Shown here: piece after piece, positions 4,798-25,844 of the stretch
Layout: every line of letters begins with the position of its first letter
Numbering within the stretch: position 1 is the stretch's first letter
IMG/VR virus record: IMGVR_UViG_3300038428_000825
Span: 1 to 64,000 of that record
Reading direction: 5' to 3' (one strand)
Length of the DNA stretch: 64,000 nt
From: a virus
Taxonomy: Duplodnaviria; Caudoviricetes
Notes under the pieces: model-generated
What the model saw: only the letters and a program-made list of their open reading frames with translations
Databases searched by the model: none
What the model was told of the DNA's origin: nothing
Made by a program: the position numbers and the translations under genes

Positions 4798-4843
4798 ACC
4801 CTCATGTCAAACTCCGTTAGCAAGGCAGTTTAGGGATTGTCCG

Positions 4844-5677
4844 TCACTCGATAGTGATGTCAAAGAGTTCCCGCACAGGCACATAGGCGCGTCCAGTCTC
4901 ACCAGCGCGTCTGGTCTTTCGATCGAAAACTTCCACGAGACTGAGATTATGAGTAAATGTATCGCGAAGATCCGTGCCTGAAAGGCAGATTATTCGAGTT
5001 TTTTCACCGAGCCTGAAAGCCGTCAGGCCATCCTCACTAAAGCCAGAGTTGCTTACAAACAAACCCCGCGTCCAATCCGCTTTAGTTCGTACTGTTCCGG
5101 CGAAAGATTGAAGTTCACGATTACCGATCGGCGGTTCCTGCCACTTGGCTTCCACCAGGTAAGTGTTGGCATTAAGCTCGAAACTGCCGTCTATCTGTTC
5201 GCCAACCAACCGAAAAGACTTTCGCGGTGACAGTCCGAAAACTGCAAACAACGCGTCGAGAAAGCCTTCAAATGCAAATCCACGCGCTTGTGGTGGAAGT
5301 TTCTCAAGTTCGGTAAGGCGCGTGGCAAGTCGCTCGTAAAGTGTAGGCATGACTGCCATATTGAGACCATTTTCAGTGAGCCACCACAGCATGTTCGGGT
5401 AGCTCCGCGCAATGGTGTCAAAATAGTCTCCGGGGCAACCGAAAACATAGTTTCCTCGTGCAAGTACAGTCTCGGCAAGGACGTCCGACAAAGATTCGAC
5501 CGGAATAGGCACGTTGGAGACTTCGGCAATCCGTTCGACTAGCTCATGGTTCGTACTCTCGCCTTTCATTGAAAGAGATGCAAAGTTGTCTTCAATCAAC
5601 TTGGCGAATGTAGATTCATCAATCGAGTTGTCGTAGTTACTGAAGCGTTCCCAGAGGTGAATTCTCATCATATCCAT
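4844..5677 (-). CDS. Mrr-like (type IV) PD-(D/E)xK restriction endonuclease domain protein
   Basis: C-terminal RGFAFE...GEQIDGSF...YLVEAKW...GLFVSNSGFS pattern of the Mrr catalytic domain; strand and codon usage differ from the backbone. Confidence 0.8.
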   Translation of the reverse strand: MDMMRIHLWERFSNYDNSIDESTFAKLIEDNFASLSMKGESTNHELVERIAEVSNVPIPVESLSDVLAETVLARGNYVFGCPGDYFDTIARSYPNMLWWLTENGLNMAVMPTLYERLATRLTELEKLPPQARGFAFEGFLDALFAVFGLSPRKSFRLVGEQIDGSFELNANTYLVEAKWQEPPIGNRELQSFAGTVRTKADWTRGLFVSNSGFSEDGLTAFRLGEKTRIICLSGTDLRDTFTHNLSLVEVFDRKTRRAGETGRAYVPVRELFDITIE

Positions 5678-5802
5678 TCGGTTTTGTCAGTTGTCATTCG
5701 CTCAAAAATGATAGCCGCTCGCTTAAATCCACAGCAATAGTATGAGGCATCGCTAGCGACAAACGCCGATTGCGCCAGAATGGATTCTGGAATATCGCCA
5801 TA

Positions 5803-5984
5803 TCGCCAAAGCTCCGCCGATCAGCTTCCGCGGAATTCTGGGTTTACGCCAACAGCCCTGTTGACTCTTCCAGATGTTTAGATGGAGCTTAAAGGTGATC
5901 TGCATCACTCCGTGGGCTTGCCAAACTGGATCATCTGGAGACTAACCGACCGGCTACGTTCATGGGAAGGCGATTTGTTGTAAA
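5803..5984. repeat. ~185-bp inter-cargo repeat, copy A
   Basis: Highly similar to 17890-18079, which carries an extra 8 bp. Confidence 0.9.
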
Positions 5985-6013
5985 CGCAACATACCGACTG
6001 CTTCACCCCGATG

Positions 6014-9000: not shown

Positions 9001-10393
9001 TCGAAGGGGTACCTCTTCGCAAGCCCGTTTGAGAAGCGAGTAGGAGGTCGAGCGACGCCCTGGCCTGAACTTCGCCGGCCGAGCGTGGGATATTGAGCCA
9101 ATGGGATTTGCCCGTGTGCCGCTGGACGATCAACTTCAATAACTGGGTTTTTCCGGAGCCCAGTTCTCCGCGTAGAACCACGATCCCGCCCGCTTGTAGC
9201 TGCTCGCTAATCGAATCAACCAAAGCCTTTCGCGAGAGGCAGGGATTGACCAACTCCGGCGCATCGGTTGAGATCGACATCAATCCGATGGCGAAGCCGG
9301 CGTCCTGGCCAAGGCTTTGACTCAGGACAGCCAGATTCTGTCGGATCACCTGAGCCTCGCTCGCCTGTTGGTTGATGGTCCTAAGGTTCTGGATCAGCTG
9401 ATTTAAGATTCCCTTCGGCTCGGAGCTACGCCTCGCCAAATCGAAGACCGCATTTATGGCGGCAACGTCGTCCTCGAGTCCTTCAACTCGCACACCGTGA
9501 TCTTCCAGCTCGCGCTCAACAGTGGTGAGACGCCGCTCGATCTCTTGGAGCTGAGCTTCGAAGCTTCGGACCGCGATGATCGCCTGTTGAGAAACCGACG
9601 GCGTACTCAACTCAGCAGTCAGATCTTCAGCCGCGAGCGTCTTCCTTCCAGCCCGGCACAGGAGGAGGAAAACATAGGCAAAGAGGTGCTCATAAAGCCG
9701 GTCGATTTCCTCAGCGGATGGCGAGTCGTCTCGCCCGGCAAGCGCTTCCTTGATATCGGCCATTACGTTCAGGTAGTCGCCGTGCCCAGAGCTCCACTCC
9801 AATCGCCGGATGAGATTCAGCAATGGACAGGTGTCTTCGGCGTCCACCATACCGCGCATGCAATCCCACGATGACTTCGATACTTTGCCCGGTTGGGAGC
9901 AGGACCGCAGAAATGTGGCGATCAAGCTGACGGCTGCGGCCTCTTCTGCCTCTCCATATTTGTGGAGACGGATCGCCTCCCAGGTTCCGATTGCGGAGCC
10001 GGAACCGATCCAGTCCCGCTCAACTCCCAGTTCAGCGGTAGTCACATAACGGAATGACAGGCTCCACTGGGGATTCAGCTTCTGATGTTCGCAAAAGCGG
10101 GCAATCGCCTGGAGAGCCTCTCCGCTCTTCAGGGTTAAATTGGCAGATCGTACTTTGAGCTGACCAAGACGCCGAACCTCCACCAACTCAACCGGAGGGT
10201 CGCCGGACGCTACGGCCTGCCCGATCACATCACCGACCGCCTTCCCGACGACGTCAATATCCTCCCCACATTCGAGCTCAAGATGTTCATTTTCAGAAAG
10301 ATTCAGCCACTGCAACACCGTCAGGTTCGCCTGAAAGACGAATCCTCGGATAGTCGCAAAAGCGTCGTTTCCCGGATTGGCTCGGAAATGCAT
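6014..10393 (-). CDS. Nuclease-NTPase-helical repeat protein (Avs/STAND-like anti-phage protein)
   Basis: N-terminal Cap4/DUF4297-type motif (A..RGFVFQ...ECGEDID...QLK), coiled coil, Walker A GELGSGKT, Walker B LLVIDD, long TPR-like helical C-terminus; start may be 10393 or 10405. Confidence 0.7.
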   Translation of the reverse strand: MHFRANPGNDAFATIRGFVFQANLTVLQWLNLSENEHLELECGEDIDVVGKAVGDVIGQAVASGDPPVELVEVRRLGQLKVRSANLTLKSGEALQAIARFCEHQKLNPQWSLSFRYVTTAELGVERDWIGSGSAIGTWEAIRLHKYGEAEEAAAVSLIATFLRSCSQPGKVSKSSWDCMRGMVDAEDTCPLLNLIRRLEWSSGHGDYLNVMADIKEALAGRDDSPSAEEIDRLYEHLFAYVFLLLCRAGRKTLAAEDLTAELSTPSVSQQAIIAVRSFEAQLQEIERRLTTVERELEDHGVRVEGLEDDVAAINAVFDLARRSSEPKGILNQLIQNLRTINQQASEAQVIRQNLAVLSQSLGQDAGFAIGLMSISTDAPELVNPCLSRKALVDSISEQLQAGGIVVLRGELGSGKTQLLKLIVQRHTGKSHWLNIPRSAGEVQARASLDLLLASQTGLRRGTPSNVWAAAVAEAFRGSLLVIDDLPVVPPGGELAARLEALAEAFRHAGAKLLFSTYHTLPSAFEQRLGFVHVEAPRFTRSDVSELFGLLGAPQRLTTDAILDLIVAISEGLPILVAAAVRYLADQSWGFTSEHLESLLKGEFAEGVRADVGQLLQTMVPDDAERELLIRLSQAVGAFSLEEVARVARVPRPISLPGEKVQRASGIWLQPLGSDRYLRSPLISAKLGSSLDPKTFRGVHFVLGRNLLDKKVLEPADVLICVNHFTLSGSVNHAYIVLIQALAEISIQDEPLDEGFGFIQFWTTYPLPPGGDLNLQLYLKALQLVVTDRQGAQIDRLVGQLDALIEESGSTGWGVAMAAGHVAIHMARKNAALANRFLVPAINQFNISEFPTGGAPLPRREYPLEGVLWITAVSSRSDEDVYSWIETVSQYTPAQLETLNSSDLAEDNITVLCDGVWRREYDKPEAERDWDHAKAVLAKIEEVAQAIPYPLLEAAAIRNRIIILAEWEHQVAAALDLAQATVSRLPDEDCAFLIAEVTGRQLHYAGRSAEGARWLEQALACNSYRQSLWRRNVLITLAEICGPTDRTRAADLTGAAVELCRNTGLIDTSLIEALAEHSMALWNNNQRAEAFRALEEAVSKSLETESPADTWKGMFARVFGVAAYYSGVALNGRPQAGHVEPTQGLFLGSSSEAPGAFRSTQLPYVCLRLAMYAEGIGDSASAARWALKGMEYAEIHRDALPAVRASQWMGLADSLMRNDFRRVAEIAIAMATIELPTQAHVDSLGQAGEALSTVRSMLEANLTPQARLSVLLLPVISSTLKLALLKLDSAVSPINETVIEDAIQQLETIPAAYPSAEPYIPTLLVSLQGDANWEELHRWSVDSAARAEYLCTFVYMIGTILRAPLRESLYAQIWLVREMEKGFRSYQAIIREVAAPFFIRYWERACDRSGFQFSVRPSYARQQVESTERSFPGLRRLLKEMRFCLGTPLPDEVMAWLDRI

Positions 10394-10652
10394 TTTGGAA
10401 ACCATCCTAAAAAGGATAACCGTTCGAAGAACGACTAAGCTCCTCCTGCAATACATTCCTCATAAAGGTCAGGATCCAGTGTCAGCGCAACAGCCCCGAG
10501 CAGGTCTCCAGCACTTCATGAATACGACCAGATCAAGTCCGTCATCCCCTGGCCGGTGACTCTCGGCTTCTGTTTGGAAATCGGGAGCACTGTAATTCTC
10601 AACTGACGCGAACCGTAGCGCTCACTGAAAGATCTATCGACCTCCCGTTACA

Positions 10653-10737
10653 GGTTCCGGGCGTCTTGTCTGCACCTCGGAAGCAGACCCACTATCCAAA
10701 TCCCTGGAACCCCGCCTTCGGACGGGGTTCTTTTTTT
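10653..10737 (+). terminator. Intrinsic terminator preceded by a competing upstream helix (structured RNA / attenuator-like)
   Basis: GAACCCCG-ccttcgga-CGGGGTTC plus T7 (10707-10737); GGTTCCGGG (10653-10661) can pair with CCTGGAACC (10703-10711); internal GTCTGC/GCAGAC hairpin. Confidence 0.7.
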
Positions 10738-12921: not shown

Positions 12922-13008
12922 TCTGCACTGCCCGACTCGCCGGTTTCCGCCGGCGAGTTCCTCTCTGTAACAGCCTTCCCGTCAATGAACTAACTGCCCG
13001 CAATAATC

Positions 13009-13018
13009 CCTATACTAG
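13009..13018 (+). promoter_or_regulatory. CCTATACTAG putative phage late promoter; other copies at 21368, 29959, 41118, 43168
   Basis: Identical 10-mer containing TATACT upstream of five transcription units; four copies extend as ...TAGACA. Confidence 0.75.
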
Positions 13019-13028
13019 GGAGGTATGT

Positions 13029-13748
13029 ATGGCAACTCCTGGTCTTATTCCGATTCCGGAAGACCTGGCCCTTTTCCCCGTCCCAACCGAGAATGTGAAT
13101 GGCCTGCTCGCCACCAGCGAGGATCTCGGCCTCACTGTTGAGGAAAAGCAGGAACTCGACAACTACCAGTCTGCGCTACGGATTCTCGGCCCGGCAGCCG
13201 GAGCTGTGCTCATGTGTCCCGGCAACCAGGAGAATGTAGCGGACGAGGACAAGTGTCCGTACTCGTCGAAGTGTCCCTTGCTCCGGATGCACAAGGCCCT
13301 CGCGGACAAGATGTGTCCCGTTGAACGCCTGATTGTCGAAGAGCGTTTCAACGCCTGGTGCAGAGAGCTTTCTACCGACCCGGTCCTGGCGAAGGAATCT
13401 GACCGGGTCGCTATTTCCGACCTCTGTTGGATCGACCTGCAGATGCAGCGTTCGTTGCACATCCTGAGCAAAGGAGATGAAGCTCGCCTGACGGTGACCA
13501 ATCCCAAGGATGTTCACCCGGAGACATTCCTTCCTATCTCCTGGGAGAAAGTCATCCATCCGAACGTCGAGCTTTTGGTAACACTGCAGACCCAGCGCAG
13601 AATGATCTTGAAAGATTGGATGCTGACTCCTGAGCAGAAGTGGAAGAGGGAGAAGGCGGAAGGCAAGGGGTCTGGCAAGGACATAGCCAGCAAGCAATCA
13701 GCGCGGGCCGACAAGCTCAGAGCGATCAAGTCAAGCAACGAGGATTAG
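13029..13748 (+). CDS. Hypothetical protein, possibly terminase small subunit
   Basis: GGAGG RBS, CCTATACTAG motif upstream, Cys cluster, C-terminal WMLTPEQK helix reminiscent of small terminases; function is inference only. Confidence 0.4.
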   Translation: MATPGLIPIPEDLALFPVPTENVNGLLATSEDLGLTVEEKQELDNYQSALRILGPAAGAVLMCPGNQENVADEDKCPYSSKCPLLRMHKALADKMCPVERLIVEERFNAWCRELSTDPVLAKESDRVAISDLCWIDLQMQRSLHILSKGDEARLTVTNPKDVHPETFLPISWEKVIHPNVELLVTLQTQRRMILKDWMLTPEQKWKREKAEGKGSGKDIASKQSARADKLRAIKSSNED

Positions 13749-13839
13749 ACGGATCCCCACACGGAGATGGACCCAAATCCACCCGTACTCGCCGGGCCAA
13801 CTGAAAGGTTGGCCTGGTGAATCCCCCCAAGAGGTAAGA

Positions 13840-15456
13840 ATGTCAGGACGCGGCAGGCCGAGGGCAAGCATTACCAGCGAGCAGGTTGCAGCCGAACTCA
13901 AGGCTGGGTTGAAAGTCAAACAGATCGCCAAGAAGTACAACTGTTCTCCTGACACAGTCGAGCGCAGGGCGAACCCTACAGGCAGGACAGACAAGCGTGT
14001 AGGGCATCATGGCGCTTCCGCCGCAAAGCCTTCCCCTTCTCCTGTCGACATTGGAACCTTCAAGACCACCGCCGAGGCAGAAGCTGAGTATCTGCCGAAA
14101 TCGGATGCGCAGCCCACCACTTCCGTCAATGGACGGCAGTGGCTGCTCTCCAAGGTGGTGGGCAACGACATCCGCCAACGGTACTGGTACAACAAGGACC
14201 AGGATCGCTACATCACGGTGATCCGCGGTGTGGGCGAGCCGATCGTGACCTCCGGCGCCGAGCACCGCGCCATCTGTGAAGCCTATTCCAACATGGTTGG
14301 GAAGAGCTCCACCCTGAATGAGATTGCGCGCGACTTCGGCATGCCCAGAGCCTGGCTGATCCAGTATCTGCACATCCACGGCATCACCCACGACAAGGAA
14401 CCCTTCTCAGCCGAAGAGCTGATTGAGCGGACCACCGACGACTTGGTCGAAGATCTCTACAACATGAAGCGCCGTGCTGTCTTCACTGCCATGAACGAGA
14501 AGTCCTGGAAGGAGATCAAGAAACGGGCTGCCTTGTGGGATAACTTTGAGCATTCGGTGTCACGGGTTGTCGACGACTGGGCCAACCGCTTCGTTCCAGA
14601 CTACCGTCCGCAGTTGGTGAACATCATACGTGCGTCGAGGCCGTTCTCGGCCGTGTTCCTGCCGATGGACTTCCATTATGGAAAGGGATCCTGGTTCGAC
14701 GAAGCCGGCCACAGCTACACACGGCAGAGTTGTAAGGAGCTTCTGAGGTTCCACACCGAGAACATCCTGAACAGTCTGGTGGCGCGTGGCCGCCCCACTC
14801 GCATCGTCGTTCCCTTCGGTTCCGACTGGTTCCATGTGGACAATCAGTTCGGCAGCACCACGCTCGGCACGCCTCAGGATCTGGATGGCACACCCGAGAT
14901 GATCCTGAGCGAGGGCCTCGAATTCAAGGTCGAGTTCTGCGACTGGCTTCGTCAGGTAGCACCGATCGTGCTTCTTCCTTGTCCTGGCAACCACGATCAC
15001 CACTCCGACATTGCCTTGATGAAGTACCTGCAAGCCTGGTACCGCAATGACGATGATGTGGAGATCATCGACAGCCTGATGAGTCGCAACTACTACGTCT
15101 GCGACAACACGCTGATCGGCGCCACCCACGGCAACGACGTCAACTTGGCCGACCTGCCCACCTTGATGGCCAATGAGCGCCGCCAGGAATGGGCCCAGAC
15201 CGCTCACCAGATCTTCGTCACCGGCCACACTCACGGTGAGGTGCTTGAGGACGACGGCGGCATCATGCACTACACCTGCCCGTCGCTGTCGGCGGCAGAT
15301 CGATGGCATGAAGGCCGCGGCTACAACCTCAACCGCCAGGCGATGGCTGCGATCGTTCTCGATGAAGAGGAAGGTCCCACCAACTTCGTCGTCTCAGCGC
15401 GCCAGAACCGGACCACCGTCGGCTTCAACATCAAGAACCGGTCGAGGGCGGCCTAA
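13840..15456 (+). CDS. HTH-containing calcineurin-like metallophosphoesterase/nuclease
   Basis: N-terminal HTH (VKQIAKKYNCSPDTVERR); motifs DFHYG, GSDWFH, GNHD, THG, GHTH. Confidence 0.85.
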   Translation: MSGRGRPRASITSEQVAAELKAGLKVKQIAKKYNCSPDTVERRANPTGRTDKRVGHHGASAAKPSPSPVDIGTFKTTAEAEAEYLPKSDAQPTTSVNGRQWLLSKVVGNDIRQRYWYNKDQDRYITVIRGVGEPIVTSGAEHRAICEAYSNMVGKSSTLNEIARDFGMPRAWLIQYLHIHGITHDKEPFSAEELIERTTDDLVEDLYNMKRRAVFTAMNEKSWKEIKKRAALWDNFEHSVSRVVDDWANRFVPDYRPQLVNIIRASRPFSAVFLPMDFHYGKGSWFDEAGHSYTRQSCKELLRFHTENILNSLVARGRPTRIVVPFGSDWFHVDNQFGSTTLGTPQDLDGTPEMILSEGLEFKVEFCDWLRQVAPIVLLPCPGNHDHHSDIALMKYLQAWYRNDDDVEIIDSLMSRNYYVCDNTLIGATHGNDVNLADLPTLMANERRQEWAQTAHQIFVTGHTHGEVLEDDGGIMHYTCPSLSAADRWHEGRGYNLNRQAMAAIVLDEEEGPTNFVVSARQNRTTVGFNIKNRSRAA

Positions 15457-15816
15457 CCCACAACAGTTAGGAACACCAACCGACAGCGCGCCTACCACCG
15501 GCGCGCTGTTGTCGCATTAGAGGTAGGACAGGACCATGAAACCCTTCTCCGCACAGATCAAGAAGCCCACACAAAAGGCCGGACTGGCCGCGATGCCCAC
15601 CCGTGTCATCAAGACAGGCGCAAGCCGGTCCGTGGTCAGCGGAGTCGCGCGTTCAGCCAGGACCGCCGGCGCCCGCAGGCTCCGCGGGGTTTGATTCCTA
15701 TACTGATGCTGTTGGCGAATTCCGGCTGTCTCACTGAAGTCGCCTGAAACGGGATTTTGCAGGGGCTTCAGGAGAGCATCCAGGGTCAAGGCTCGATGAG
15801 GGCTTCAGCGGTTTAC

Positions 15817-15853
15817 CGTAAACCCAGAATCCATTCTGGCGCAATGGGCGTTT
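15817..15853 (-). repeat. Inverted partial copy of the island-1 repeat region
   Basis: 15824-15853 is 29/30 identical to the reverse complement of 5761-5790; contains palindrome CCAGAAT-nn-ATTCTGG. Confidence 0.8.
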
Positions 15854-15987
15854 GCCGTTCCTGATCGTCGCCGTCAACGCTTGCTACGTCTCGGATTGTA
15901 TGAAGCTAGGAGTTCGTCGATCATCTTAGCTAAATGATAGGCGAGCGGATCAGCGATCAGCTAGCAGAACAGGAAATACGAACAACT

Positions 15988-17787
15988 TCAGGATGACTGA
16001 CGCCGATGGATAGCTATTGGAGTGAGAACAAACAGGCTATGTAGCACACGATTCGAAGTATATTCATTGAAGCCTTGGGGTGGGATGAGCCCATGCGCAA
16101 GGTTATTGCGCAAGTTTGCTCCTCTCCGATCAATATAAAGCAATGTGAGATACCGCCAGACGTCCTCGAGTAATACTTCTCGTATTCTAGGCTCATCGAG
16201 AATATTGTTCATGCTTTTCACGTCAATGATACCGGGGGATCTAGGTACGCTCTTCACTGGCGGAACACCGATCAGCGGAAGAAGATTTCGAAGCACCCCC
16301 TCTATTTGCGGCACCAGTAGATGAATTGCCTTCATATGGTCTCGTCCCAAATAAGCCGTGAGTCCTTCATGCACAATCTGCCTGCGAGTCGTGTCAAACA
16401 CTGGGCATTCGAACAGGAACGACGTGAGTTCTTCTGCGCTCGGTACAAACTGTTCTCTAATCCTCTCCATAGCCAAGTAGAGTAAGGGATCTGAAAAACT
16501 CATCAGCTGATTCAATTGATAGTAGAGGTGCCCTTCGAGGTCATCTTCAACGCTCCCCAAATGTGCCTGAGGGCGTCCATCTGCGCTTACGATCTCGATG
16601 GGCAGCATGCTTGCCAATGGCGCGATGCCCTTCTTTTTCTCAATCAGACTCTGTGCCTCACTCACCTTGGGAGTGAAATATGCAGCAACCTTTCGAAGGG
16701 TCACCGCGAGGCTGTCATCCGCCACTAAAGATGCGAGCAGAGCATCGATATCGTCCTTCTTAAATTCAACTGGGAAGGAATAGGTCTTCATCTCACCAGG
16801 AATCTTGGCATAGAGATCTTCCAGCTTATTCCTGATTATCTCCGCGTCTGCCTTCATTCCTTCTTGTTCATATCGCTGTGCGACAGGTTCAAGCCAAGCA
16901 GTTGCGAGCGTCGCCCCAGCGCCTTCCGCTATCATTTGGAACGCAGCTCCGATCGATTTAAGCACCCGCTCGGCCTGTCCCGCATCGCCCGACTTCTTGT
17001 AGTGTCGAACTAGCCTTTCCCCAACGGCCTGAGCATTGAATGGGTCGAATTCACCACCCTCATCTCTAGTTAATAGCCTCATTAACATATCTTCGAGGCC
17101 AGAGACCAGAGAACCCAGCTGTTTCTCAGTTACGAGGTCTGGGTGTTCATACAGCAAGTCAAACAGTGTGATCCAGACTCCAACGAACTTTGGAGACAGA
17201 TTTGCATCGTAGAACCTGAGAATCGAGTCAACCGCCGACCTTGTCCGGTTCTCATCACGAACGCTCATGGCTAGATCGAGCGCCCTGACAAGCCAATGCG
17301 TTGCAAAGATTGGAATAGTGAATAATCTGTGATCCACTGCCGAGAGGTATGCGTCAGAAGCCACCCTCGCCATTTGGTGATTTGGCTTCGCACCACAGAT
17401 CATTTTCGCTAGGTCCCATGCAGTATCCGCGTAGCGTGCTTTCATTAAAGGATTACTAGCTTCTTCCGCCCGCCGCTCCCAGTGGGCTATGGTCTCCGCG
17501 TCAAGCGCTGAGATGTCCGGGGTTACGACGGTAGGTTTTCCTTCTCCGCCGGGAAAGATTGCCATCGGACCAAAGTGAGTTCCCCAAAAGCTTTCTCTCG
17601 GTTTCTGATATCCGATCAAAAAGAAGACCGAGTGCTCCGCTAGGTAGGCTTTCCACTCCTCTTCTTCGAGATCGCCTCGCTTTGATCGTTCTTTTTGAAG
17701 GCATTCCGCGATCTCGGTCTCGCTATGAGGGTCTATCTTCATGTCAAACGCTGCAAGAACGGCGCTAATCCATTCTGGAATCGTCAT
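15988..17787 (-). CDS. DUF4209-like protein with a C-terminal HEPN (RxxxxH) domain, putative defence RNase
   Basis: AIHLLVPQIEGVLR...NLRNNLAHG; large helical N-terminus; AAGAG RBS. Confidence 0.75.
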   Translation of the reverse strand: MTIPEWISAVLAAFDMKIDPHSETEIAECLQKERSKRGDLEEEEWKAYLAEHSVFFLIGYQKPRESFWGTHFGPMAIFPGGEGKPTVVTPDISALDAETIAHWERRAEEASNPLMKARYADTAWDLAKMICGAKPNHQMARVASDAYLSAVDHRLFTIPIFATHWLVRALDLAMSVRDENRTRSAVDSILRFYDANLSPKFVGVWITLFDLLYEHPDLVTEKQLGSLVSGLEDMLMRLLTRDEGGEFDPFNAQAVGERLVRHYKKSGDAGQAERVLKSIGAAFQMIAEGAGATLATAWLEPVAQRYEQEGMKADAEIIRNKLEDLYAKIPGEMKTYSFPVEFKKDDIDALLASLVADDSLAVTLRKVAAYFTPKVSEAQSLIEKKKGIAPLASMLPIEIVSADGRPQAHLGSVEDDLEGHLYYQLNQLMSFSDPLLYLAMERIREQFVPSAEELTSFLFECPVFDTTRRQIVHEGLTAYLGRDHMKAIHLLVPQIEGVLRNLLPLIGVPPVKSVPRSPGIIDVKSMNNILDEPRIREVLLEDVWRYLTLLYIDRRGANLRNNLAHGLIPPQGFNEYTSNRVLHSLFVLTPIAIHRRQSS

Positions 17788-17889
17788 CTCTTAAGGACCT
17801 GCCTTTCTGGAGCGGAATTACGCTCAGAATTCTATTCGACCTCGGTGATTTCTGACGTGCTTAATCACGGCGGATACATCCTCACCAAG

Positions 17890-18079
17890 TCGCCAAGGCT
17901 CCGCCGATCAGCTTCCGCGGAATCCTGGGTTTACGCAAACAGCCCTGAGTCCCTGTTGACTCTTCCAGATGTTTAGATGGAGATTAAAGGTGATCTGCAT
18001 CATATTGTGGGCGTGCCAAGCTGGATCATCTGGAGACTAACCGGCCGGCTCCGTTCATGGGAAGGCGATTTGGCGTAAA
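17890..18079. repeat. ~185-bp inter-cargo repeat, copy B
   Basis: Aligns with 5803-5984. Confidence 0.9.
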
Positions 18080-18171
18080 GCGAGAGACACTCCAGGCGAC
18101 ATTGGTTTTACCGGTAGTAATCTTGAGCCGAAACACCACAATTAGCTGGTTCAAACAGACCCTCCGCCTCG

Positions 18172-21147
18172 CTATCGCTCAAGCCGCACACGAAGACGCC
18201 GCGCTCGTTCGCGAAATGCTTCCTCGCCGCCCTCAAGGATGTCGCAAACGGCTTTGCGAATATTGACGTCTTCCAGGCCACCGGCGACGTAAGTAATTGG
18301 AGGCAGACCTGCCGCAGGGTGCGGGCCTGCGTCGGCGATGATGATCTGGTCTGCGTCCGTGTTGATCACCAGATTAGCGTTGTGAGTGACCATAATCACT
18401 TGGCGCTTGGTCTTGGCCGTGATAAACAACGAAACCAGTTCATCGAACACCGACTTCGGGTCCAAGTTTTCCTCAGGCTGATCGATTATCAACGGACGGT
18501 CGTCGGCATCGTCGAGTGCAAGGTATAGCAGCAGCAACACGATCCCACGCGTACCAGGCGAAAGCTTACGAATGTCGACGCCGTCGTAGGCGATCTCATA
18601 TCGAACGGAGATATGATCTGTGCTGAACAACCACTGTGCAAACTGTTTTAACCAGGCTCGGAATTCCAGCTTCTGTGTGGGAACATACGGCGCGTGTGAG
18701 AGTAGGTTCTTCCAATATTCAGCGATGAAACGGGCCATCGCCGCCTGAATGTCAGCCGCGCTCCCGGTCTCCCAAGCCGGTTTTAGTTTAGAGTTCGCGA
18801 GCTTAATCAGCGAGCCGCGGCCGTAGAATGGTCCACTCTTGCGACAATCTATGAGTTTGTCTTCAGCGAGGCCACCCCAAGTGTCTGCATCGATAACACG
18901 CGACACTGAAAAGCTAAGTTTGCTTAACGTCCCCGATGAATTCGCAAGCCTAGCCATAAGTGGCGCATAGAGGGCTTTGAGCTCGTTCTGTTCGCTAAGA
19001 ATCGCATCAAACACTCGGCCGTAAGACGCTTCGCGCTCAGTTTGGAGAGCCTTCCGGCGTGCCGCGGCACCTTGCGCATCAGTCAGACGCGCCTCAAACG
19101 CCTTGAGCGCACTGTTCTCCTGAGCGATCCGCGTGGAGAGTGCCGTATATTGATTGCGAACGACCGTATCGGCGCTGATGAACTGTTCTAGCCGCGTCAT
19201 CTCAGCCTTGATCGTTGCTAGGTTGACCGTTGTCAGGTCTTTCCCAAGGGGAATTAGCGCCACATTTGGATCGCCCGGCGGCGGAGGCACACCATTGATG
19301 TTTGCAATCTCTTTGTCGGCCCAGACGATGTAATCTGAGAGGGCCTTGTCAACGTCGCCCTTATAGATAAGCAGGAAATCATCCCACTGCGATGTGGCAA
19401 GTCCACTCTCGGAGTGTCGCGCCTGTAGCTCCCGCAGCATTTCTGGCGCCTTCGTTGCGCGCATGTTCTTCACTTCGTCCTGCATGGTGAGGTATGTGCG
19501 ACGTTGGTTGCTGAAGCTCTGTATCTTCCCGTTGAGAACTTGTGCAGCACGGCTCAACTCTGCATGACGCTTCGCTTGTACCTCTGTACCTTTGACGACG
19601 AGCTTGCCAAGGTCCACGTTATATCCTACGATCAAGCTCCGCTTCTGTGCGGCTTGCTGGTCGTAGGAAGCTACGAGACCCTCCTTCTCCAGTTCTTCGG
19701 AGATCCGGTCGGAAATCGCGGCGATCGCCTCATCCTCACGCACACGCGACTGCTGAAAGCGCACGACCCTGGACTCAAGAAGCTCAGCGAAGTCCATCGC
19801 ACCCTCGCGTTCATCTTCTGCGTGCGCCTCGAAAATGACGCGCTCGACCTCGCGGATCAATCCTTCGGAAGCCCCCTTTGAAGAACACAAATCCTCGACG
19901 AACTGTTGCGAAAGATACCGGGCGCGGGGATAGGCTAGAGGATCATTTGCGTCAGTTCCGTCCAGCGCGCGCGCGAATGTATTGCCGCCACCCCATGTGA
20001 GGGTCACCTTGGCGTTGCCGATTAGCGTTCGTGCCCGCACCAAGAACGAGGGGCTGATAGTCTCGTCGGTATTCCAGGCCGTCCTGGTAATCGCGTCGCA
20101 GCCCGCCGCAATTACATCGACCAAAGCGGTCTTTCCGGACCCACGCGCTCCGACAATTGCGACAAGGCCGGGGTTGAGAGGAATGGTCGGCGTGACCGCC
20201 CAGGGCGCATGAGTGATCTCGACCTGCGATATGACCTGCGACGGCATGGCGTGGCGCGGCGGCTCAGCTCCGACATAAACGCGGCCGCCCGGATCGATGC
20301 AAGCTTGACGCAGTGCGTCGAAGGTGAGCGCGCCCTTGACCCACGAGAAACTGTCGTTAACGGTCTGGCCGACTGACGTTTGGTCGTGCGCGTCGCTGCC
20401 ATGGAGGCACGGCTTGCAACCGTTGTAGCGTGTCCGCAACTCGTCAACGCTGGCAGCGCGTTGGCCGAGCCAGAACTCGCGTTGTGCCTGACTGCTCGCG
20501 AAGATGATGTGCGAGAACTTCTCGATCTCCTGTCGCACTGTCGCGTCGGCGGCCTGGCTCACCCCCGAAGTTCCGTCGCCGGCACCGCCGGCAACCGCGA
20601 TCAAGATGTTCTTCTTCGCCCAATCGCTTTCGCCGAAAACTTCGCGTAGTTGTGTAAAGCTGACCTTGAACTGGGTGGCCCCGTGTGCGAGCGCGGCTCG
20701 TTCATCCTGTATTTTCGGATCGGCACATTTGCCAAGGCGGATCAGATCCTCGCGAGTACAGTCAAAGCGGTCGCCATGCGCAATGAATTGGAGGCGTGTG
20801 AGGATACGCCGGACCTGGGCAAGATGATCCGGGTCTTCGGGGCTAACCAGAAGATGAATGTTAACGAAGCCGGATTTCGCCGCCGCATCAAGCCTTACCT
20901 CGATGTTAGGGAAGATGAGCTCAACGTCCGGGAGCCGTCCTGCACTTTTCTGCCGAAGAACCTCTTCGTACGTCTCGGTGACGTAATAGTCGGTAACAGC
21001 GATGGCTTCGATTCTGGGCGTGAGTCCTTCAAGCTTGGTGAGGTAGCTCCCCCAAGGATCTCTGGCACCGAATTGGTTGTTCAGAACGGTTCCGGGCGCG
21101 TGAATGTGAGGCTCCCAGCGCCGCCATTCTGATCCTCGATTGACCAT
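18172..21147 (-). CDS. PHP-phosphoesterase plus SMC/ABC-type ATPase (TrlF family / Ppl-like anti-phage protein)
   Basis: GSEWRRWEPHIHAPGT, AVTDY, HGSDAH (PHP); GARGSGKT; coiled coil; LSPGTRG signature; LIIDQPEENLD; VTHNANL; AAGGAG RBS. Confidence 0.85.
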   Translation of the reverse strand: MVNRGSEWRRWEPHIHAPGTVLNNQFGARDPWGSYLTKLEGLTPRIEAIAVTDYYVTETYEEVLRQKSAGRLPDVELIFPNIEVRLDAAAKSGFVNIHLLVSPEDPDHLAQVRRILTRLQFIAHGDRFDCTREDLIRLGKCADPKIQDERAALAHGATQFKVSFTQLREVFGESDWAKKNILIAVAGGAGDGTSGVSQAADATVRQEIEKFSHIIFASSQAQREFWLGQRAASVDELRTRYNGCKPCLHGSDAHDQTSVGQTVNDSFSWVKGALTFDALRQACIDPGGRVYVGAEPPRHAMPSQVISQVEITHAPWAVTPTIPLNPGLVAIVGARGSGKTALVDVIAAGCDAITRTAWNTDETISPSFLVRARTLIGNAKVTLTWGGGNTFARALDGTDANDPLAYPRARYLSQQFVEDLCSSKGASEGLIREVERVIFEAHAEDEREGAMDFAELLESRVVRFQQSRVREDEAIAAISDRISEELEKEGLVASYDQQAAQKRSLIVGYNVDLGKLVVKGTEVQAKRHAELSRAAQVLNGKIQSFSNQRRTYLTMQDEVKNMRATKAPEMLRELQARHSESGLATSQWDDFLLIYKGDVDKALSDYIVWADKEIANINGVPPPPGDPNVALIPLGKDLTTVNLATIKAEMTRLEQFISADTVVRNQYTALSTRIAQENSALKAFEARLTDAQGAAARRKALQTEREASYGRVFDAILSEQNELKALYAPLMARLANSSGTLSKLSFSVSRVIDADTWGGLAEDKLIDCRKSGPFYGRGSLIKLANSKLKPAWETGSAADIQAAMARFIAEYWKNLLSHAPYVPTQKLEFRAWLKQFAQWLFSTDHISVRYEIAYDGVDIRKLSPGTRGIVLLLLYLALDDADDRPLIIDQPEENLDPKSVFDELVSLFITAKTKRQVIMVTHNANLVINTDADQIIIADAGPHPAAGLPPITYVAGGLEDVNIRKAVCDILEGGEEAFRERARRLRVRLER

Positions 21148-21397
21148 TGGCTCTCCTTATTACCGCCAATAATATGCCGCGTGGCGACATCACTCCCCGT
21201 CTGTCGCCACGTGTTCGCTGATCTGCCAACACACGCTCCTTGGTTGATGTTAACAGCCCAAGTCACTCATTCACGGACGTTTTGATCACGGTCACTGCTT
21301 TGCAACGCTGGTAAAACGGCGTTTGCAGTAATTTGCAGAAGCCGGTTCGGGGATTCGCCAACAGAACCCTATACTAGACAGCTTCCAGGAGTCCGAA

Positions 21398-21646
21398 GTG
21401 AACAATCCCTTCAATCCGATCATGAGCACACTGAGGGCAACGAACTGGCGAGCTGTCGGGTTTGCCGCAGCCTCTGGAGGTGCTCAGTTTGCTGCCGGCT
21501 CCGCAGCGGTAGGTGCCATCGTCGGACGGAAGAACCACAAAGTCAGCGCCATGGGAAGAGGGGCACTGTATGGAGGTGCAGCCGGCGCTGTGGGTGCAGC
21601 GGGCTTCTCCGTATGGGCCCAACGCGCTCTCCGGGCTGCAGCGTAA
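21398..21646 (+). CDS. Small Gly/Ala-rich hydrophobic (glycine-zipper) protein
   Basis: AGGAG RBS, directly after the CCTATACTAG motif; GxxxG-rich helices. Confidence 0.7.
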   Translation: MNNPFNPIMSTLRATNWRAVGFAAASGGAQFAAGSAAVGAIVGRKNHKVSAMGRGALYGGAAGAVGAAGFSVWAQRALRAAA

Positions 21647-21667
21647 CCAAGAGATTCGGAAGGCCAT

Positions 21668-22342
21668 TTGCCCAGATTTGCTCCAGCAACACTCGCCGTC
21701 ATGTCCGGCTCCGCAGTTCTTGGCGGGGCATTCGGCTTTTCGCGCGCCAGTGCCGCTGCTCAGGATGATCCTGCTCCTGAACGGCTTGGATTCTCGATTG
21801 TTCAAGGCGGGGCCACGGCCGCCGTGGCCGCCGGCGTCGGAGCGTTCGCGTGGAAGAGCCGTGACATTCTGGCTCCCGCAGCCTGGGGAACTGCCAGGGG
21901 CATCGGCGAGAGTGCCACCCGGTCCATGAGCCGTGCCTTTCAGACCAAGGGACTTACCGGGATGCTGAGTCACCCTCTCACCATGGCCGGCTTCGGCGCG
22001 GTTGCTGGGGGCCTGATCGGTTCCAAGTTGAGTGACGACCCCGTCAGAGGAGCTGCCGCCGGCGCGGCCATCGGAGGCGTAACGACTCTGGCTGCCCGCG
22101 GAGCAACGAAACTCTGGGGCGGATCTCCCTGGTATGCGAAGGCTGCCCTAGTGGCGGCCGCTGCCATTGGGGCCGGCACTGCGACGCGCGCCTTTACGCA
22201 CGAAGATTCCTATGCCGCCGAGGATCACGCTGTCAGTGACGGTTCCGGAGGCTACGAGACAGAGCCCGGTGTTCGCCGGCGCATGGCTTCGATGAATGCC
22301 ACAGGAGACGTGGTCTTTGGTCTCCATTCAAGGCGCCACTAA
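21668..22342 (+). CDS. Glycine-zipper membrane-like protein (putative internal virion/ejection protein)
   Basis: Several GxxxGxxxG/AAAG hydrophobic stretches; GGAAGG RBS, TTG start. Confidence 0.7.
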   Translation: MPRFAPATLAVMSGSAVLGGAFGFSRASAAAQDDPAPERLGFSIVQGGATAAVAAGVGAFAWKSRDILAPAAWGTARGIGESATRSMSRAFQTKGLTGMLSHPLTMAGFGAVAGGLIGSKLSDDPVRGAAAGAAIGGVTTLAARGATKLWGGSPWYAKAALVAAAAIGAGTATRAFTHEDSYAAEDHAVSDGSGGYETEPGVRRRMASMNATGDVVFGLHSRRH

Positions 22343-22872
22343 TGCCCGTCGATCTCAATCAGGCAGCCCGCACGAACTTCGGCAATGCCGCCCAAAGTGT
22401 ACGGATGGCGCCATCGAACGCCTTCTGGCGCGGGGCGAGCGCCGGTACGTTTGGCGCTGCCTCTGGCGTCCTGATGGTGGCGCATGAAGCGGCGACCGCC
22501 CAGCGCGGCGAAGTTGTCCCCACCACTTTGGGGCGTAGCGCGAGTCTGGTGACCTATCCAGCTTTGGCCGGGACGATTGCGGCCGGAACTTCAACTCTTG
22601 CAGCCGTCATGGGCCTCTCGATTCCTCTTGTGGGCCCCCTCGCTTGCATCGCAGCTCTCTATCCAGATGTGGTGCTTGGCAATTCAGTCAGTCGCGCAGT
22701 ACGCGGAGTGACCGACCTCGGCCGGCAGATCCGCCATCTGGAGTTTGGTGGGCACTACACCGACACGGAGACTGCCCAGCGCCTGCGTATGCAGGCTTTC
22801 TATGAGATGAGCGGCGCCACTTCGGCGGCCCGCCGTTACTTGGGCCAAGAGGCATACTTTCTTCACCGGTAA
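22342..22872 (+). CDS. Hydrophobic Ala/Gly-rich protein
   Basis: TAATG coupling with the upstream gene; long hydrophobic central segment. Confidence 0.7.
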   Translation: MPVDLNQAARTNFGNAAQSVRMAPSNAFWRGASAGTFGAASGVLMVAHEAATAQRGEVVPTTLGRSASLVTYPALAGTIAAGTSTLAAVMGLSIPLVGPLACIAALYPDVVLGNSVSRAVRGVTDLGRQIRHLEFGGHYTDTETAQRLRMQAFYEMSGATSAARRYLGQEAYFLHR

Positions 22873-22882
22873 TGGAGACAAA

Positions 22883-23158
22883 GTGAACAACCCACTCAAT
22901 GCTATTTGGAGTTCTCTCAGCTCGGCAGCCAAATGGACGGCTGGCCGGGTGTCGCAACCTGGAATTGCAAGGAACGCTGCGATTGGCACAGGCATCGTCG
23001 CTGGTGCCGGCATTGCCGGCGGAGTCGGCGGCGCCTACAAGAACTGGTCCATCGGCGGGAATCAGGACAAGGCCCGGTCCGCCCGGATCGGTGCAACTCT
23101 CGGCGTTCTCGGAGCAGGCTCTGTCCTCGGAGCCCGTGCCCTCGCAAAGCGTGTCTAA
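22883..23158 (+). CDS. Small glycine-zipper protein, similar to 21398..21646
   Basis: GGAG RBS; MNNPLNAIWSSL versus MNNPFNPIMSTL N-terminus; two Gly-rich hydrophobic helices. Confidence 0.7.
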   Translation: MNNPLNAIWSSLSSAAKWTAGRVSQPGIARNAAIGTGIVAGAGIAGGVGGAYKNWSIGGNQDKARSARIGATLGVLGAGSVLGARALAKRV

Positions 23159-23191
23159 CATAACCTTCAACCTTCGGAAAGTGAGTGCCTC

Positions 23192-23644
23192 ATGGGATCT
23201 CCCGTCACCATTCCCAACCCGGCTCCCGGCTGTTCGTACCTGAACTACCCGCGTGCAGTGTTGAATACACCCCATCCTGTCTACGGCGGGAACCTTGCCG
23301 GCTTCGGTGTGGGTGATCTGCCGACTCAGTTCGAGTCAGGCATTCCTGTGTTCAATGCCATTACGGCGAACGCGACATCTGGGCTGATCGATGTCGCTGC
23401 CAACGCAATCGAACTGACCGCAACTTTCAGCGACCTTCACACCAGCTGCACGATCACGGTCTTCCTCGCGGACGGCGAAACGGTCGTTGCCACCTGGAAC
23501 AACGTGTCGACTCTCAACAGCGGCAACTTGTATGCCGGCTTCGCTGAACAACGCAAGCTGATCGGCGGCGGCTCCCTCCTCTTCCAGGTCTCGAACTACG
23601 ACGGCTCCGGATCCATCACCCTGTTGGTCAAGCGTACCGGCTAA
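23192..23644 (+). CDS. Hypothetical beta-rich (probably structural) protein
   Basis: 150-aa ORF, Thr/Gly/Asn-rich, phage-like codon usage. Confidence 0.65.
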   Translation: MGSPVTIPNPAPGCSYLNYPRAVLNTPHPVYGGNLAGFGVGDLPTQFESGIPVFNAITANATSGLIDVAANAIELTATFSDLHTSCTITVFLADGETVVATWNNVSTLNSGNLYAGFAEQRKLIGGGSLLFQVSNYDGSGSITLLVKRTG

Positions 23645-23729
23645 TCGCAGTTCTCCATACCTCATGGTGTGGACGTGGCTTCTGGTCCCGTGAGCCAGCC
23701 AATCACGGGGCGCTCCTTTAAGGACACAA

Positions 23730-25844
23730 GTGAGCAGCGGATTCGTTCCGTTGGCAGACCTGGTTGCCGGCCTCACGCCGGACGATCAAGAGTTCTTTGC
23801 CAACACCATCAAACGAGATCACGAAGCAGCAGGGACCGACCAGGAGGGAATCCTGCGCCGGATCTTGGGCTGTAAGCAATGCCAGGACTGCGTCGCTGCC
23901 TACAAGCAGAAGCATCCAGGCAAGGCGTTCGGGATCAAGTGCGTCGGTGTCTATGACATGGCTGATTACGAGGCCATGCAGGCTGACCAGAAGGCGATCG
24001 ACGAGAACGACTTCGACAGCATCGACGAGATCCGCGAGATATACGACCCGGCATTCTGGGCCACCAGGTACATGGTTCTGAGGGACGACCAGGGCAACAT
24101 CGAGCCCTGCGCGCCGCGCGCGTACCAGGAAGAGGCCCTCCGCTGCACTTCCCCTCGCAAAGTAGATCGGTGGGGCCGCGGTCTGGGCAAGACGCTCTGC
24201 GGCGTCATCGAAGAGCTCCACTTCATCAGCATCAACAAGAACACCGAAGTCATGGTGGTGGCGCCTTCCCAGGCGCAGGCCCAACTGTGGTGGGACGAGA
24301 TTGTCTTCCAGATCGAGAACTCGCCGGCTCTCGGCGGGAACGACTTCCTGATCTCGAAGAAGCAGCAACCTTATTACTACATGCGGTTCGGCAACGGCTC
24401 GGTCATCAAGATCTTCACGGCCGGTTCGAAGTCCGGCAAGGGTGCTGATTCCGTCCGTAGCCAATCTCCTCGCCGCATCCGGCTTGAGGAGCAGGATTAC
24501 CTGGCGGACAAGGACTACCAGGCCATCATGCCGCTGATGCGCCGGTTCAAGAACATCACCTTCCATGGTTCCTCGACACCGACCGGCCTGCGCGGAATGT
24601 TCTGGCAGATGTGCAACAAGTTGCCGGACTATAAGGAATTCTTCCACCCGATCATGGACCACCCGAACTGGGGGACTGATCAGCTGAATGAGGAAGTCTG
24701 CCTGGCCGAGGCTCAGACCCTGGAGAAGTACCGGCATGAATGGCTGGCCGAGTTTGGTGATCCGACTGCCGGCGTCTTCAAGTCCGCGTTTGTCGACTGG
24801 GCCATGAAGCCCTACAGCCTCAAGACTCTGATCCACGATCCGTCCAAACGCCATGTCATGGGCATCGACTGGAATGGCAAGGGCACTGGCACCAGGATTG
24901 TGGTAACCCAATACGATCCCGCCACGCGCAAACGGCGCGTGGTTCATCACGAGGCGATCGACGACGACAAGGCAACGACCAAGAAGTCCTTCAACAGGAT
25001 CGTCGAGCTGAACAAGCTCTGGCACTGCGACTATGTGTACGTCGATGCCGGCTTCGGCTTTGTTCAAGACGAACTCATCAAGGACATCGGTGTTCAGGCC
25101 GGCACCTTCGATTCCGATACCGCGAAGCTGAAGTACATCAATGTCATTGACTTCGGCGCCAAGCTTGAGACCAACGCAATTGTTCCCAACCGGAATCCAG
25201 ATTCGAAGTATCTGGCCGATCCCAAGGACGACATCCTTAAACGGCGCACCAAGCCGTTCATGGTCGAGGGCACGGTCATGGCCTTCGAGATGGAGCTGGT
25301 CGAGGTTTCGCGCGAGTACGCTCTGCTCGAGGAACAGCTTCGCGGTTTCAGGGTCAAGACCTGGACCAAGGGCGGCGCGGCCGACACCTATTCCACTGAT
25401 GCCGACTCCGGCGATCACGATCTCGATGCTTTCATGTTGTCGATGCTGGGAATCGAGCTGAACTACGGTCTCTGGCACACCAAGGAAACCGTCAGGCGTT
25501 TGGTACAAATCGCCCATGTGTCAGGCTGGGGATTGCCGTCCACTGTAATTAGCCAGCAGGCGGCGTCACCCGTCCAGACGCCAGGGCCGCCGGCCCCGGC
25601 TGCCATCGAGAGGATGCGTGAACTCAAACGCGAGACCTCCGGTGTTCCTGCGCGAACCAAGCCAGAAAGCAACCTGCAGGAGCAGTACCGTTTGCTTCAC
25701 ATGGCGAGGCAGAGCTACACCGTGGCGCCTGTCAACTCACCTGGGTCCGCCGGCAATGGTCGCGTTCCTTCCCGCACCAGCTTCTTTCAGAATTCAACCC
25801 GGCCCGGATTTGGCAGTGCCGGTCGTCGTTTTGGTGGTGGTTAA
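23730..25844 (+). CDS. terL: Terminase large subunit
   Basis: YQ Q-motif, Walker A-like WGRGLGKT, VVAPSQAQA, IRLEEQ (Walker B position), SSTP motif III, RNase H-like MGIDWN...DAG...DHDLDA. Confidence 0.9.
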   Translation: MSSGFVPLADLVAGLTPDDQEFFANTIKRDHEAAGTDQEGILRRILGCKQCQDCVAAYKQKHPGKAFGIKCVGVYDMADYEAMQADQKAIDENDFDSIDEIREIYDPAFWATRYMVLRDDQGNIEPCAPRAYQEEALRCTSPRKVDRWGRGLGKTLCGVIEELHFISINKNTEVMVVAPSQAQAQLWWDEIVFQIENSPALGGNDFLISKKQQPYYYMRFGNGSVIKIFTAGSKSGKGADSVRSQSPRRIRLEEQDYLADKDYQAIMPLMRRFKNITFHGSSTPTGLRGMFWQMCNKLPDYKEFFHPIMDHPNWGTDQLNEEVCLAEAQTLEKYRHEWLAEFGDPTAGVFKSAFVDWAMKPYSLKTLIHDPSKRHVMGIDWNGKGTGTRIVVTQYDPATRKRRVVHHEAIDDDKATTKKSFNRIVELNKLWHCDYVYVDAGFGFVQDELIKDIGVQAGTFDSDTAKLKYINVIDFGAKLETNAIVPNRNPDSKYLADPKDDILKRRTKPFMVEGTVMAFEMELVEVSREYALLEEQLRGFRVKTWTKGGAADTYSTDADSGDHDLDAFMLSMLGIELNYGLWHTKETVRRLVQIAHVSGWGLPSTVISQQAASPVQTPGPPAPAAIERMRELKRETSGVPARTKPESNLQEQYRLLHMARQSYTVAPVNSPGSAGNGRVPSRTSFFQNSTRPGFGSAGRRFGGG

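Follow-up and report, generated by a model that had tools for sequence, protein, structure and literature searches.

Knowledge of the hotspots at which temperate phages exchange anti-phage genes comes mainly from enterobacterial P2- and P4-like elements, and the origin of such hotspots is rarely visible. Mobile insertion cassettes (MICs), of which MIC231 of Bacillus cereus is an example, have inverted repeats like those of an insertion sequence (IS) family and a short target duplication, carry passenger genes in place of a transposase, and are presumed to be mobilized in trans. Here, we describe a locus that combines these two known kinds, a fossil MIC and a phage defense hotspot. It is a 5,664-bp insertion at positions 15705-21368 of the window, our term for the whole 64,000-nucleotide stretch analyzed, which is the first 64 kb of a provirus-classed IMG/VR record of 98.9 kb (G000; CheckV completeness 46%). 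We consider it probable, if far from certain, that a single old, trans-mobilized insertion of MIC type founded a variable accessory and defense hotspot at this site and that its cargo was later swapped by recombination.

One source (PMC6542083) lists MICs among transposase-dependent elements, and another (PMC5678879) describes the IS1182 family as heterogeneous, with some members that target palindromes. In the descriptions of P2/P4-like hotspots (10.64898/2026.02.27.708500; PMC9122126), near-identical core genes surround different, often anti-phage, cargo at a fixed locus, and this cargo is swapped fast and without pseudogenes. The window element resembles MICs in its inverted repeats, short duplication, passenger genes and presumed mobilization in trans. 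Unlike MICs, it lies in a phage, occupies a single site, has no sister copies elsewhere and has undergone repeated exchange of its interior; "fossil MIC turned hotspot" describes it better. With the IS1182 family it shares 18-bp ends of the form GAyrCTGTTGGCGAAwTC and a short flanking duplication (7 bp in the window, 6 bp in the related unit at locus L033), but it has no transposase and no similarity beyond the ends. As in P2/P4-like hotspots, close relatives of the window phage carry unrelated, often defense-like cargo at one locus. By contrast with those hotspots, the locus belongs to a peat prophage of Acidobacteriaceae, has transposon ends and a target duplication in a promoter-like motif, and still exists in an empty state. 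It also differs from integron-like systems, because no linked site-specific recombinase was found at the locus and its 198-bp internal repeat folds no better than shuffles.

The insertion and its cargo comprise the following features:

15692-15704, plus strand: left half of the split motif, TGATTCCTATACT, including the left copy of CTATACT (15698-15704)
15705-15722, plus strand: left terminal inverted repeat, GATGCTGTTGGCGAATTC, 17 of 18 positions matching the ends of IS1182-type insertion sequences
15705-15814, plus strand: left end module of class A, about 100-110 bp, common to relatives with other cargo
15988-17787, minus strand: cargo gene 1, 599 amino acids, DUF7380 plus DUF4209 (HEPN), PADLOC candidate PDC-S39
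18172-21147, minus strand: cargo gene 2, 991 amino acids, TrlF-family ATPase with a head of Rad50/SMC/ABC type and a long middle region
21252-21368, minus strand: right end module, about 111-117 bp, in every occupied relative
21351-21368, minus strand: right terminal inverted repeat, GGTTCTGTTGGCGAATCC from the outside in
21368-21381, plus strand: intact motif, CCTATACTAGACAG, including the right direct repeat (21369-21375)

As read in the sequence, the left end is GATGCTGTTGGCGAAT (15705-15720) and the right end is ATTCGCCAACAGAACC (21353-21368), which reads GGTTCTGTTGGCGAAT from the outside in. These terminal inverted repeats agree at 14 of 16 positions, including a perfect 12-mer that occurs at only these two places in the 98.9-kb record. 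Outside them lies a perfect 7-bp direct repeat, CTATACT, at 15698-15704 and 21369-21375; an alternative reading gives an 8-bp repeat, CCTATACT, at 15697-15704 and 21368-21375. An earlier note on this DNA had reported an insertion with inverted repeats and a 7-bp duplication, and the sequence confirmed both. Removal of the element in silico yields TGATTCCTATACTAGACAG, with an identical 19-mer at 29954-29972.

Using the product of the upstream gene as a query in IMG/VR, we obtained nine close relatives (95-98% amino-acid identity). Two of these, L007 and L008, have the empty site, ...TCTGATTCCTATACTAGACAGCTTCC..., without a footprint: the left flank runs directly into the right flank, the two overlapping in CCTATACT, with the junction ...TGATTCCTATACTAGACAGCTTCC.... 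The junction that the earlier note had predicted is thus present exactly in L007 and L008, which were the only contigs recovered by an exact junction search for the empty site. The remaining seven relatives are occupied at the same point. The segment 15705-21368 is a true insertion relative to a still-extant site. In one DNA contig, from run X3, position 15628 is joined to 21368. This contig may come from a variant with an empty site or with other cargo and was left out of the counts.

None of the seven occupied relatives carries the genes of the window, and all have the same right module together with one of two left modules. The class A left module has an imperfect hairpin at about 15740-15778; the class B module is about 82 bp long and has only GATGCTGT in common with the window. 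At its inner end, the right module has an ATG (21268-21270, minus strand) and about five codons (MSDLGC), followed in the window by an immediate stop; across loci, the short frame after this ATG has 5 to 107 codons and is not a conserved protein. We presume that the right module is the start region for leftward transcription of the cargo. Both cargo genes of the window run leftward, pointing away from the phage genes. A sigma-70-type scan located no promoter in the right module, and sites found by sigma-70-type promoter and terminator scans of the element were no more numerous than in shuffles.

A conserved 21-mer of the right module, searched in IMG/VR, JGI metagenomes and GTDB species genomes, was present in seven IMG/VR contigs (the same occupied relatives) and 21 JGI metagenome loci, with two real matches and one chance match in GTDB species genomes. 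The right junction is on the contig in 29 of 31 loci, window included, and always consists of ...GAACC joined to CTATACTAGAC, followed by the same phage gene; these 29 junctions are not independent events, because many of the metagenome loci duplicate IMG/VR contigs or one another. Grouped by the 400 bp immediately inward of the right module, the loci form 13 clusters, and the class-B cluster splits into at least four cargo sets; there are therefore at least 16 unrelated cargo sets. The flanks are 85-97% identical among relatives while the cargo is unrelated, and interior lengths range from 2.9 to 6.3 kb in the IMG/VR relatives and from 2.0 to 6.6 kb across all complete loci. Defense-like cargo includes the PDC-S39 and TrlF/Ppl-like proteins of the window, an HNH protein (PDC-M68A), a TIR-domain protein with DUF3800, a PLD-type nuclease, a UvrD-like helicase, an FRG protein and two radical-SAM proteins, for all of which an anti-phage function is presumed. 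Other cargo is not defense-like (Sel1, PEGA and pentapeptide-repeat proteins, ABC-transporter parts and a TPR regulator). No transposase or integrase family was matched among the scanned larger cargo open reading frames (ORFs) of relatives. The locus has conserved flanks, at least 16 unrelated cargo sets and many defense-like genes, and it therefore now behaves as a phage accessory and defense hotspot.

The window comes from a large temperate phage of peat Acidobacteriaceae. This assignment follows from the provirus class of the record, a tyrosine integrase found at its far end in a family scan of phage records, the presence of the same phage locus inside a 3.26-Mb contig of an Acidobacteriaceae metagenome-assembled genome (MAG) and in a second MAG of the family, and the labels of the DNA runs containing the sequence, which are mostly peat or wetland metagenomes. 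Extrapolation from CheckV values of 46% for 98.9 kb and 83% for 178 kb puts the prophage at roughly 200 kb. A megablast search of the GenBank phage collection with 13000-24000 gave no match.

The earlier note had suggested a search for an autonomous partner, and this search identified plausible relatives of IS1182 type. The repeat 15-mer occurs at 96 IMG/VR loci, with extension beyond the 15-mer only in relatives of this locus. In 401 Terriglobales genomes, the 18-mer pattern at no more than one mismatch gave 88 matches, against 3 for a reversed control; no conclusion here depends on genome G175, which is marked as unpublished. At G433:C366 (Terriglobales), a 1,782-bp unit has perfect 18-bp inverted ends, GATACTGTTGGCGAATTC, and a single 558-amino-acid ORF with DUF772 (E = 2.8e-16) and DDE_Tnp_1_6 (E = 1.5e-29) domains. 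The IS1182 label rests on these Pfam domains and on the name "IS1182 family transposase" given by NCBI to a 54%-identical homologue; many homologues of the transposase lie on contigs of about 1.8-2 kb, as with repeated insertion sequences. The L033 unit, in an IMG/VR provirus, is 1,749 bp long, has the ends GATACTGTTGGCGAATTC and GACACTGTTGGCGAATTC, and is flanked by a 6-bp direct repeat, CGGTCG; its transposase (553 amino acids, DUF772/DDE_Tnp_1_6 type) is 46% identical to the G433:C366 ORF (E = 1e-157). Further relatives in G032, G392 and G197 (47-54% identity) have GAnnCTGyTGGCGAAwT at or near their ends, and in some of them this core is the inner part of longer repeats of 33-37 bp; no repeat is shared by the flanks of the G392 and G197 insertion sequences at their inferred ends. 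Aligned to the G433:C366 and L033 ends, the left end of the window element matches at 17 of 18 positions and the right end at 15 of 18. Judged by this match, the window element is a transposase-less derivative, of the MIC type, with the ends of an IS1182-type clade.

Copies of the GATACTGTTGGCGAATTC end without a transposase also occur singly at L173, L174 and L175 (Terriglobales genomes G257, G032 and G077). Those at L174 and L175 lie in the loop of short hairpins, and L173 has two in tandem, 2.1 kb apart, 5' of paralogous small genes. These solo copies may be remnants or other non-autonomous derivatives.

The insertion point falls within a repeated, promoter-like motif. The window holds seven copies of CCTATACT, against 0.17 expected, and the whole record holds seven copies of CCTATACTAGAC at no more than one mismatch; all are on the plus strand in both cases, and the motif positions are mostly intergenic. 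Motifs of the CCTATACTAG type, observed at 13009, 21368, 29959, 41118, 43168 and 52978 of the window and at 69684, 83433 and 93382 of the record, likewise all lie on the plus strand, mostly just 5' of genes, and have no conserved -35-like part. The copy before gene 21398 is invariant in 29 of 29 loci with the junction on the contig, which fits a selected regulatory signal, and we regard the CCTATACTAGAC motif as a putative promoter. Sigma-70 region 2 was not found in two records of the phage lineage (G000 and G001). A search for a T7-type RNA polymerase gave no match but is uninformative, because control genomes gave none either. The earlier note held that the element regenerates the motif. 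The motif is indeed intact before gene 21398, but this is mostly an ordinary target duplication: the element contributes only one terminal C, the eighth base, and AGAAC replaces the upstream TGATT.

The ends occur at no other site in IMG/VR, JGI metagenomes, GTDB species genomes or the two host MAGs, in which the prophage pair was the only zero-mismatch pair of ends. All occupied copies share one site, even though each genome has near-identical copies of the motif elsewhere, and neither G000 nor G001 has another half-motif junction. That the repeats bound nothing at any other site is the outcome that the earlier note itself had named as counting against it. The related insertion sequences show no such site specificity, with four different flanks for the G433-type end and the duplication of CGGTCG at L033, and the TATACT target preference raised in the note is not supported. 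The end modules are 87-97% identical between relatives, compared with 85-97% for the flanks. The left heptamer, seen in 22 loci, carries mutations in three of them (CTGTACT in L115, CCATACT in L132 and TTATCCT in L123), while the right copy is unchanged in all loci seen. The left repeat is mutated in L115 and L132; class B keeps 8 shared bases of it, and L123 keeps 3. Despite this reduction, the class-B loci still differ in cargo. The element is probably no longer moving. The non-autonomous cargo transposon mobilized in trans that the note had proposed is thus upheld as an origin and probably not as a description of present mobility. Nor is it supported that the transposon delivered the present immunity genes: with at least 16 cargo sets at the same ends and site, and with the 8-bp left repeat of class B, the present cargo probably arrived by later recombination.

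In the account that we favor, the ancestor of 15705-21368 would have been a transposase-less element with IS1182-type terminal inverted repeats, that is, a MIC. A DDE transposase acting in trans would have placed it into CTATACT of the phage promoter-like motif, duplicating the heptamer, most likely during residence of the phage as a prophage within a chromosome of Acidobacteriaceae. This would have happened once, early in the phage lineage, after which the element became fixed at the site. The downstream motif copy would have been kept intact before the rightward gene block, leaving the upstream half-copy free to decay. The end modules would follow the descent of the phage backbone, with repeated replacement of the DNA that they enclose. 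The simplest account appears to be one old insertion and then, as in P2/P4 hotspots, cargo turnover by recombination within the locus.

Several repeats inside the element bear on how its cargo may be exchanged:

15809-15859, plus strand: "T-box," a short repeat beyond the 3' end of the HEPN gene, with a core, CGTAAACCCAGAAT, that recurs in inverted orientation at 17922-17935
17882-18079, plus strand: 198-bp intergenic repeat between the cargo genes, 87% identical to 5795-5984 of the window, in another variable island
17888-17945: "L-box," the first part of the 198-bp repeat, which recurs in many contexts

The 198-bp repeat lies just 3' of a large ATPase gene in both variable islands. It has a possible 33-codon frame and a long imperfect hairpin, and it folds no better than shuffles (z = -0.1). 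The T-box and L-box share the inverted core CGTAAACCCAGRAT and flank the HEPN gene. In MAG G005 (L161-L164), copies lie beside genes for a guanylate-cyclase domain and an aspartyl protease-PDZ protein and beside unassigned genes; in contigs of peat DNA and RNA libraries, they have many different neighbors on both sides. One peat DNA contig joins 15857 to 17888, exactly skipping the HEPN unit. An Rfam search of 15400-21600 returned a chance-level match only. As a separate observation, an IS1182-type element at L181 (G392:C159, 1398-3201) has 37-bp inverted repeats whose inner part is the shared core and whose outer part, GGGGTAAACCCAACAAT, includes the 9-mer GTAAACCCA, the core of the T-box and L-box of the window; this may be a coincidence.

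Some observations weigh against a single old insertion with later swapping. Midpoint rooting nests the empty-site phage inside the occupied ones on both flanks, which fits later loss, repeated gain or recombination better than a simple single old gain; the tree cannot separate loss, regain and recombination, because there is one empty lineage and rooting on its branch makes it the outgroup. In most cargo types, the right module ends on its inner side no more than about 20 bp from one ATG. Clustering this tight is not an obvious outcome of random recombination and may reflect a dedicated exchange mechanism or may reflect selection to keep the start region. The window element has no similarity to the autonomous insertion sequences beyond the 18-21-bp ends, so none of them can be named as its parent. 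Finally, no close homologue of the transposase was found in phage records G000 and G001 or in MAGs G004 and G005, where G004 has DUF772 matches at only 27-29% identity; for the host MAGs this negative is weak, because they are incomplete. A single-protein transposase search of IMG/VR also gave no match. Family scans of up to four phage records gave no DDE_Tnp_1, rve or Resolvase match (IS1595, ISL3, IS66, TnpB and Y1 were not searched) and located Phage_integrase at record ends only.

Active, site-specific non-autonomous cargo transposons, repeatedly mobilized in trans into the motif and possibly capable of precise excision, could also have produced this locus. Such elements would explain the inverted repeats, duplication and exact empty site, the match of the ends to live-looking IS1182-type elements, the many cargos between the same ends and the nested position of the empty-site phage under midpoint rooting. 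We nevertheless judge this unlikely, given that no copy occurs at other sites while other near-identical motif copies go unused, that the related insertion sequences are not site-specific (four G433-type flanks; CGGTCG at L033), that class-B relatives keep 8 bp of the left repeat yet differ in cargo, that the left half-site and the repeats carry mutations, and that no matching transposase was found in the two host MAGs. Far less probable again is integration by a tyrosine recombinase with CTATACT as a crossover core common to the element and the phage site. When joined, the ends would give two inverted arms with a 7-bp spacer between them, as in a recombinase core site, and the phage encodes tyrosine integrases. 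However, the phage target has no arms resembling those of the element, the arms match insertion sequences with DDE transposases that make a short duplication of unrelated sequence, and the integrases lie at the prophage ends, away from the element.

The end modules might instead be a fixed landing pad on which cargo is exchanged site-specifically, in an integron-like manner without a linked integrase. In a fuller form, a platform on a fossil transposon at a phage promoter would receive units bounded by L-boxes and T-boxes, with the leader ATG...AACAGCCC, in a host-phage exchange served in trans. We hold both forms to be doubtful, somewhat more so than the active transposons. The clustering of right cargo limits between ...AACAGCCC and AAGTCRCTCAT beside one ATG, in most cargo types, speaks for such a platform, as do several class-A left limits at 15806-15814. 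Copies of AACAGCCC at 17938-17945 and 21252-21259 enclose the TrlF unit, inverted cores of the T-box and L-box lie on either side of the HEPN gene, and both the peat contig that skips exactly the HEPN unit and the varied neighbors of the boxes in G005 and in metagenome contigs point the same way. Yet octamers like AACAGCCC are not clearly enriched (seven forward and five reverse internal copies in 16 elements, against a rough expectation of about four per strand), and the 198-bp repeat has no significant fold. The L-box 18-mer has no exact match elsewhere in IMG/VR, and among 151 host-family genomes the L-box occurs in G005 and in none of the 150 others. Most cargo types lack both boxes, the phage records searched gave no serine recombinase, and tyrosine recombinases are at the record ends only. 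The T-box/L-box pattern is an unexplained lead for a platform of this kind. On balance, a single old MIC-type insertion with later swapping of cargo by recombination remains our preferred account.

Within the window itself, the 599-amino-acid protein matches DUF4209, the C6orf70 family (47.4 bits, cut-off 22.3), and PDC-S39 (E = 2.3e-40), and RNNLAH near its C terminus matches the Rx4-6H motif. Anantharaman et al. (PMC3710099) placed DUF4209 in the HEPN superfamily, and the 599-amino-acid protein therefore belongs to a HEPN family; it is a putative ribonuclease. The 991-amino-acid protein matches the NCBIfam model for TrlF-family AAA-like ATPases over its full length (NF045780; 695.5 bits, cut-off 350). 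It falls below the Ppl model (NF042955; 122.6 bits, cut-off 1000), and the PADLOC Ppl model matches it at E = 1.3e-30, mainly in the C-terminal ATPase. Its profile matches in the PDB are Rad50, AriA and SMC heads. In its N-terminal 320 residues, H14-x-H16 and G250-S-D-A-H254 are among the motifs invariant in 24 homologues, and these HxH and GSDAH motifs may be PHP metal ligands; Pfam gave PHP_C at E = 0.18 only, and the PDB profile search returned no PHP chain. Ppl has been described as PHP plus ATPase (10.1101/2024.10.26.620412). Like Ppl (Gao_Ppl), a single-protein anti-phage system, the 991-amino-acid protein is large and stand-alone with a C-terminal ATPase of ABC/SMC type; unlike Ppl, it is under the NCBIfam Ppl cut-off, passes the TrlF model and has no PHP domain by Pfam. 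These profiles place it in the TrlF family of ATPases, as a relative of Ppl and not as Ppl proper. Of the two names that the earlier note had given to the cargo, the HEPN protein was borne out, while the Ppl-like PHP-ATPase is corrected to a TrlF-family ATPase.

Homologues of the 991-amino-acid protein with 77-97% identity are widespread, including in Proteobacteria, and TrlF-family copies at least 77% identical carry the labels Rhodocyclaceae, Mesorhizobium, Sphingomonadales and Sedimenticola. This conservation across distant taxa suggests a recent wide horizontal spread of the gene. In four other viral contigs, TrlF homologues have no HEPN neighbor and no shared repeats; the two cargo genes of the window are therefore most likely independent single-gene units and not one system. 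Searches of Pfam, PADLOC, PHROGs and NCBIfam, which did not include smaller ORFs, matched neither cargo protein to a transposase or recombinase family, in agreement with the transposase-less element described in the earlier note.

The element is flanked by these phage features:

13840-15456: upstream gene, with a metallophosphoesterase (PHROG "DNA repair exonuclease") joined to an N-terminal helix-turn-helix of resolvase/transposase type
15672-15688, plus strand: terminator-like hairpin closing the upstream gene, from a terminator scan, 16 bp before the insertion point
21398-21646, plus strand: first gene of the rightward downstream block, 82 amino acids, no family
23730-25844: terminase-like gene, further into the downstream block

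The upstream gene is common to occupied and empty relatives. A second variable island, at 4803-10703, is absent from the empty-site phage G001, which has 9 bp there. It lies between the stop codon of a gene and the terminator of that gene and contains, both on the minus strand, a gene like those for Mrr-type restriction endonucleases (277 amino acids, 4844-5677) and a gene for a 1480-amino-acid P-loop/NACHT-like protein with a weak DUF4297 anti-phage N terminus (6014-10456). A replaced segment at 64496-69607 of G000 is 5.1 kb long, against 1.26 kb in G001, and ends 77 bp 5' of the motif at 69684. Neither of these two segments has inverted repeats or duplications at its borders.

Acidobacteriaceae are a dominant, poorly studied group of soil and peat. 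In their prophage, the locus described here keeps the birth marks of a hotspot, namely transposon ends, a target duplication and a surviving empty site. It suggests that a transposase-less IS derivative can found a long-lived phage cargo locus without disabling the neighboring phage genes. It also links a defined IS1182-type clade to phage genome evolution and provides a natural catalogue of at least 16 candidate accessory and defense cargos.

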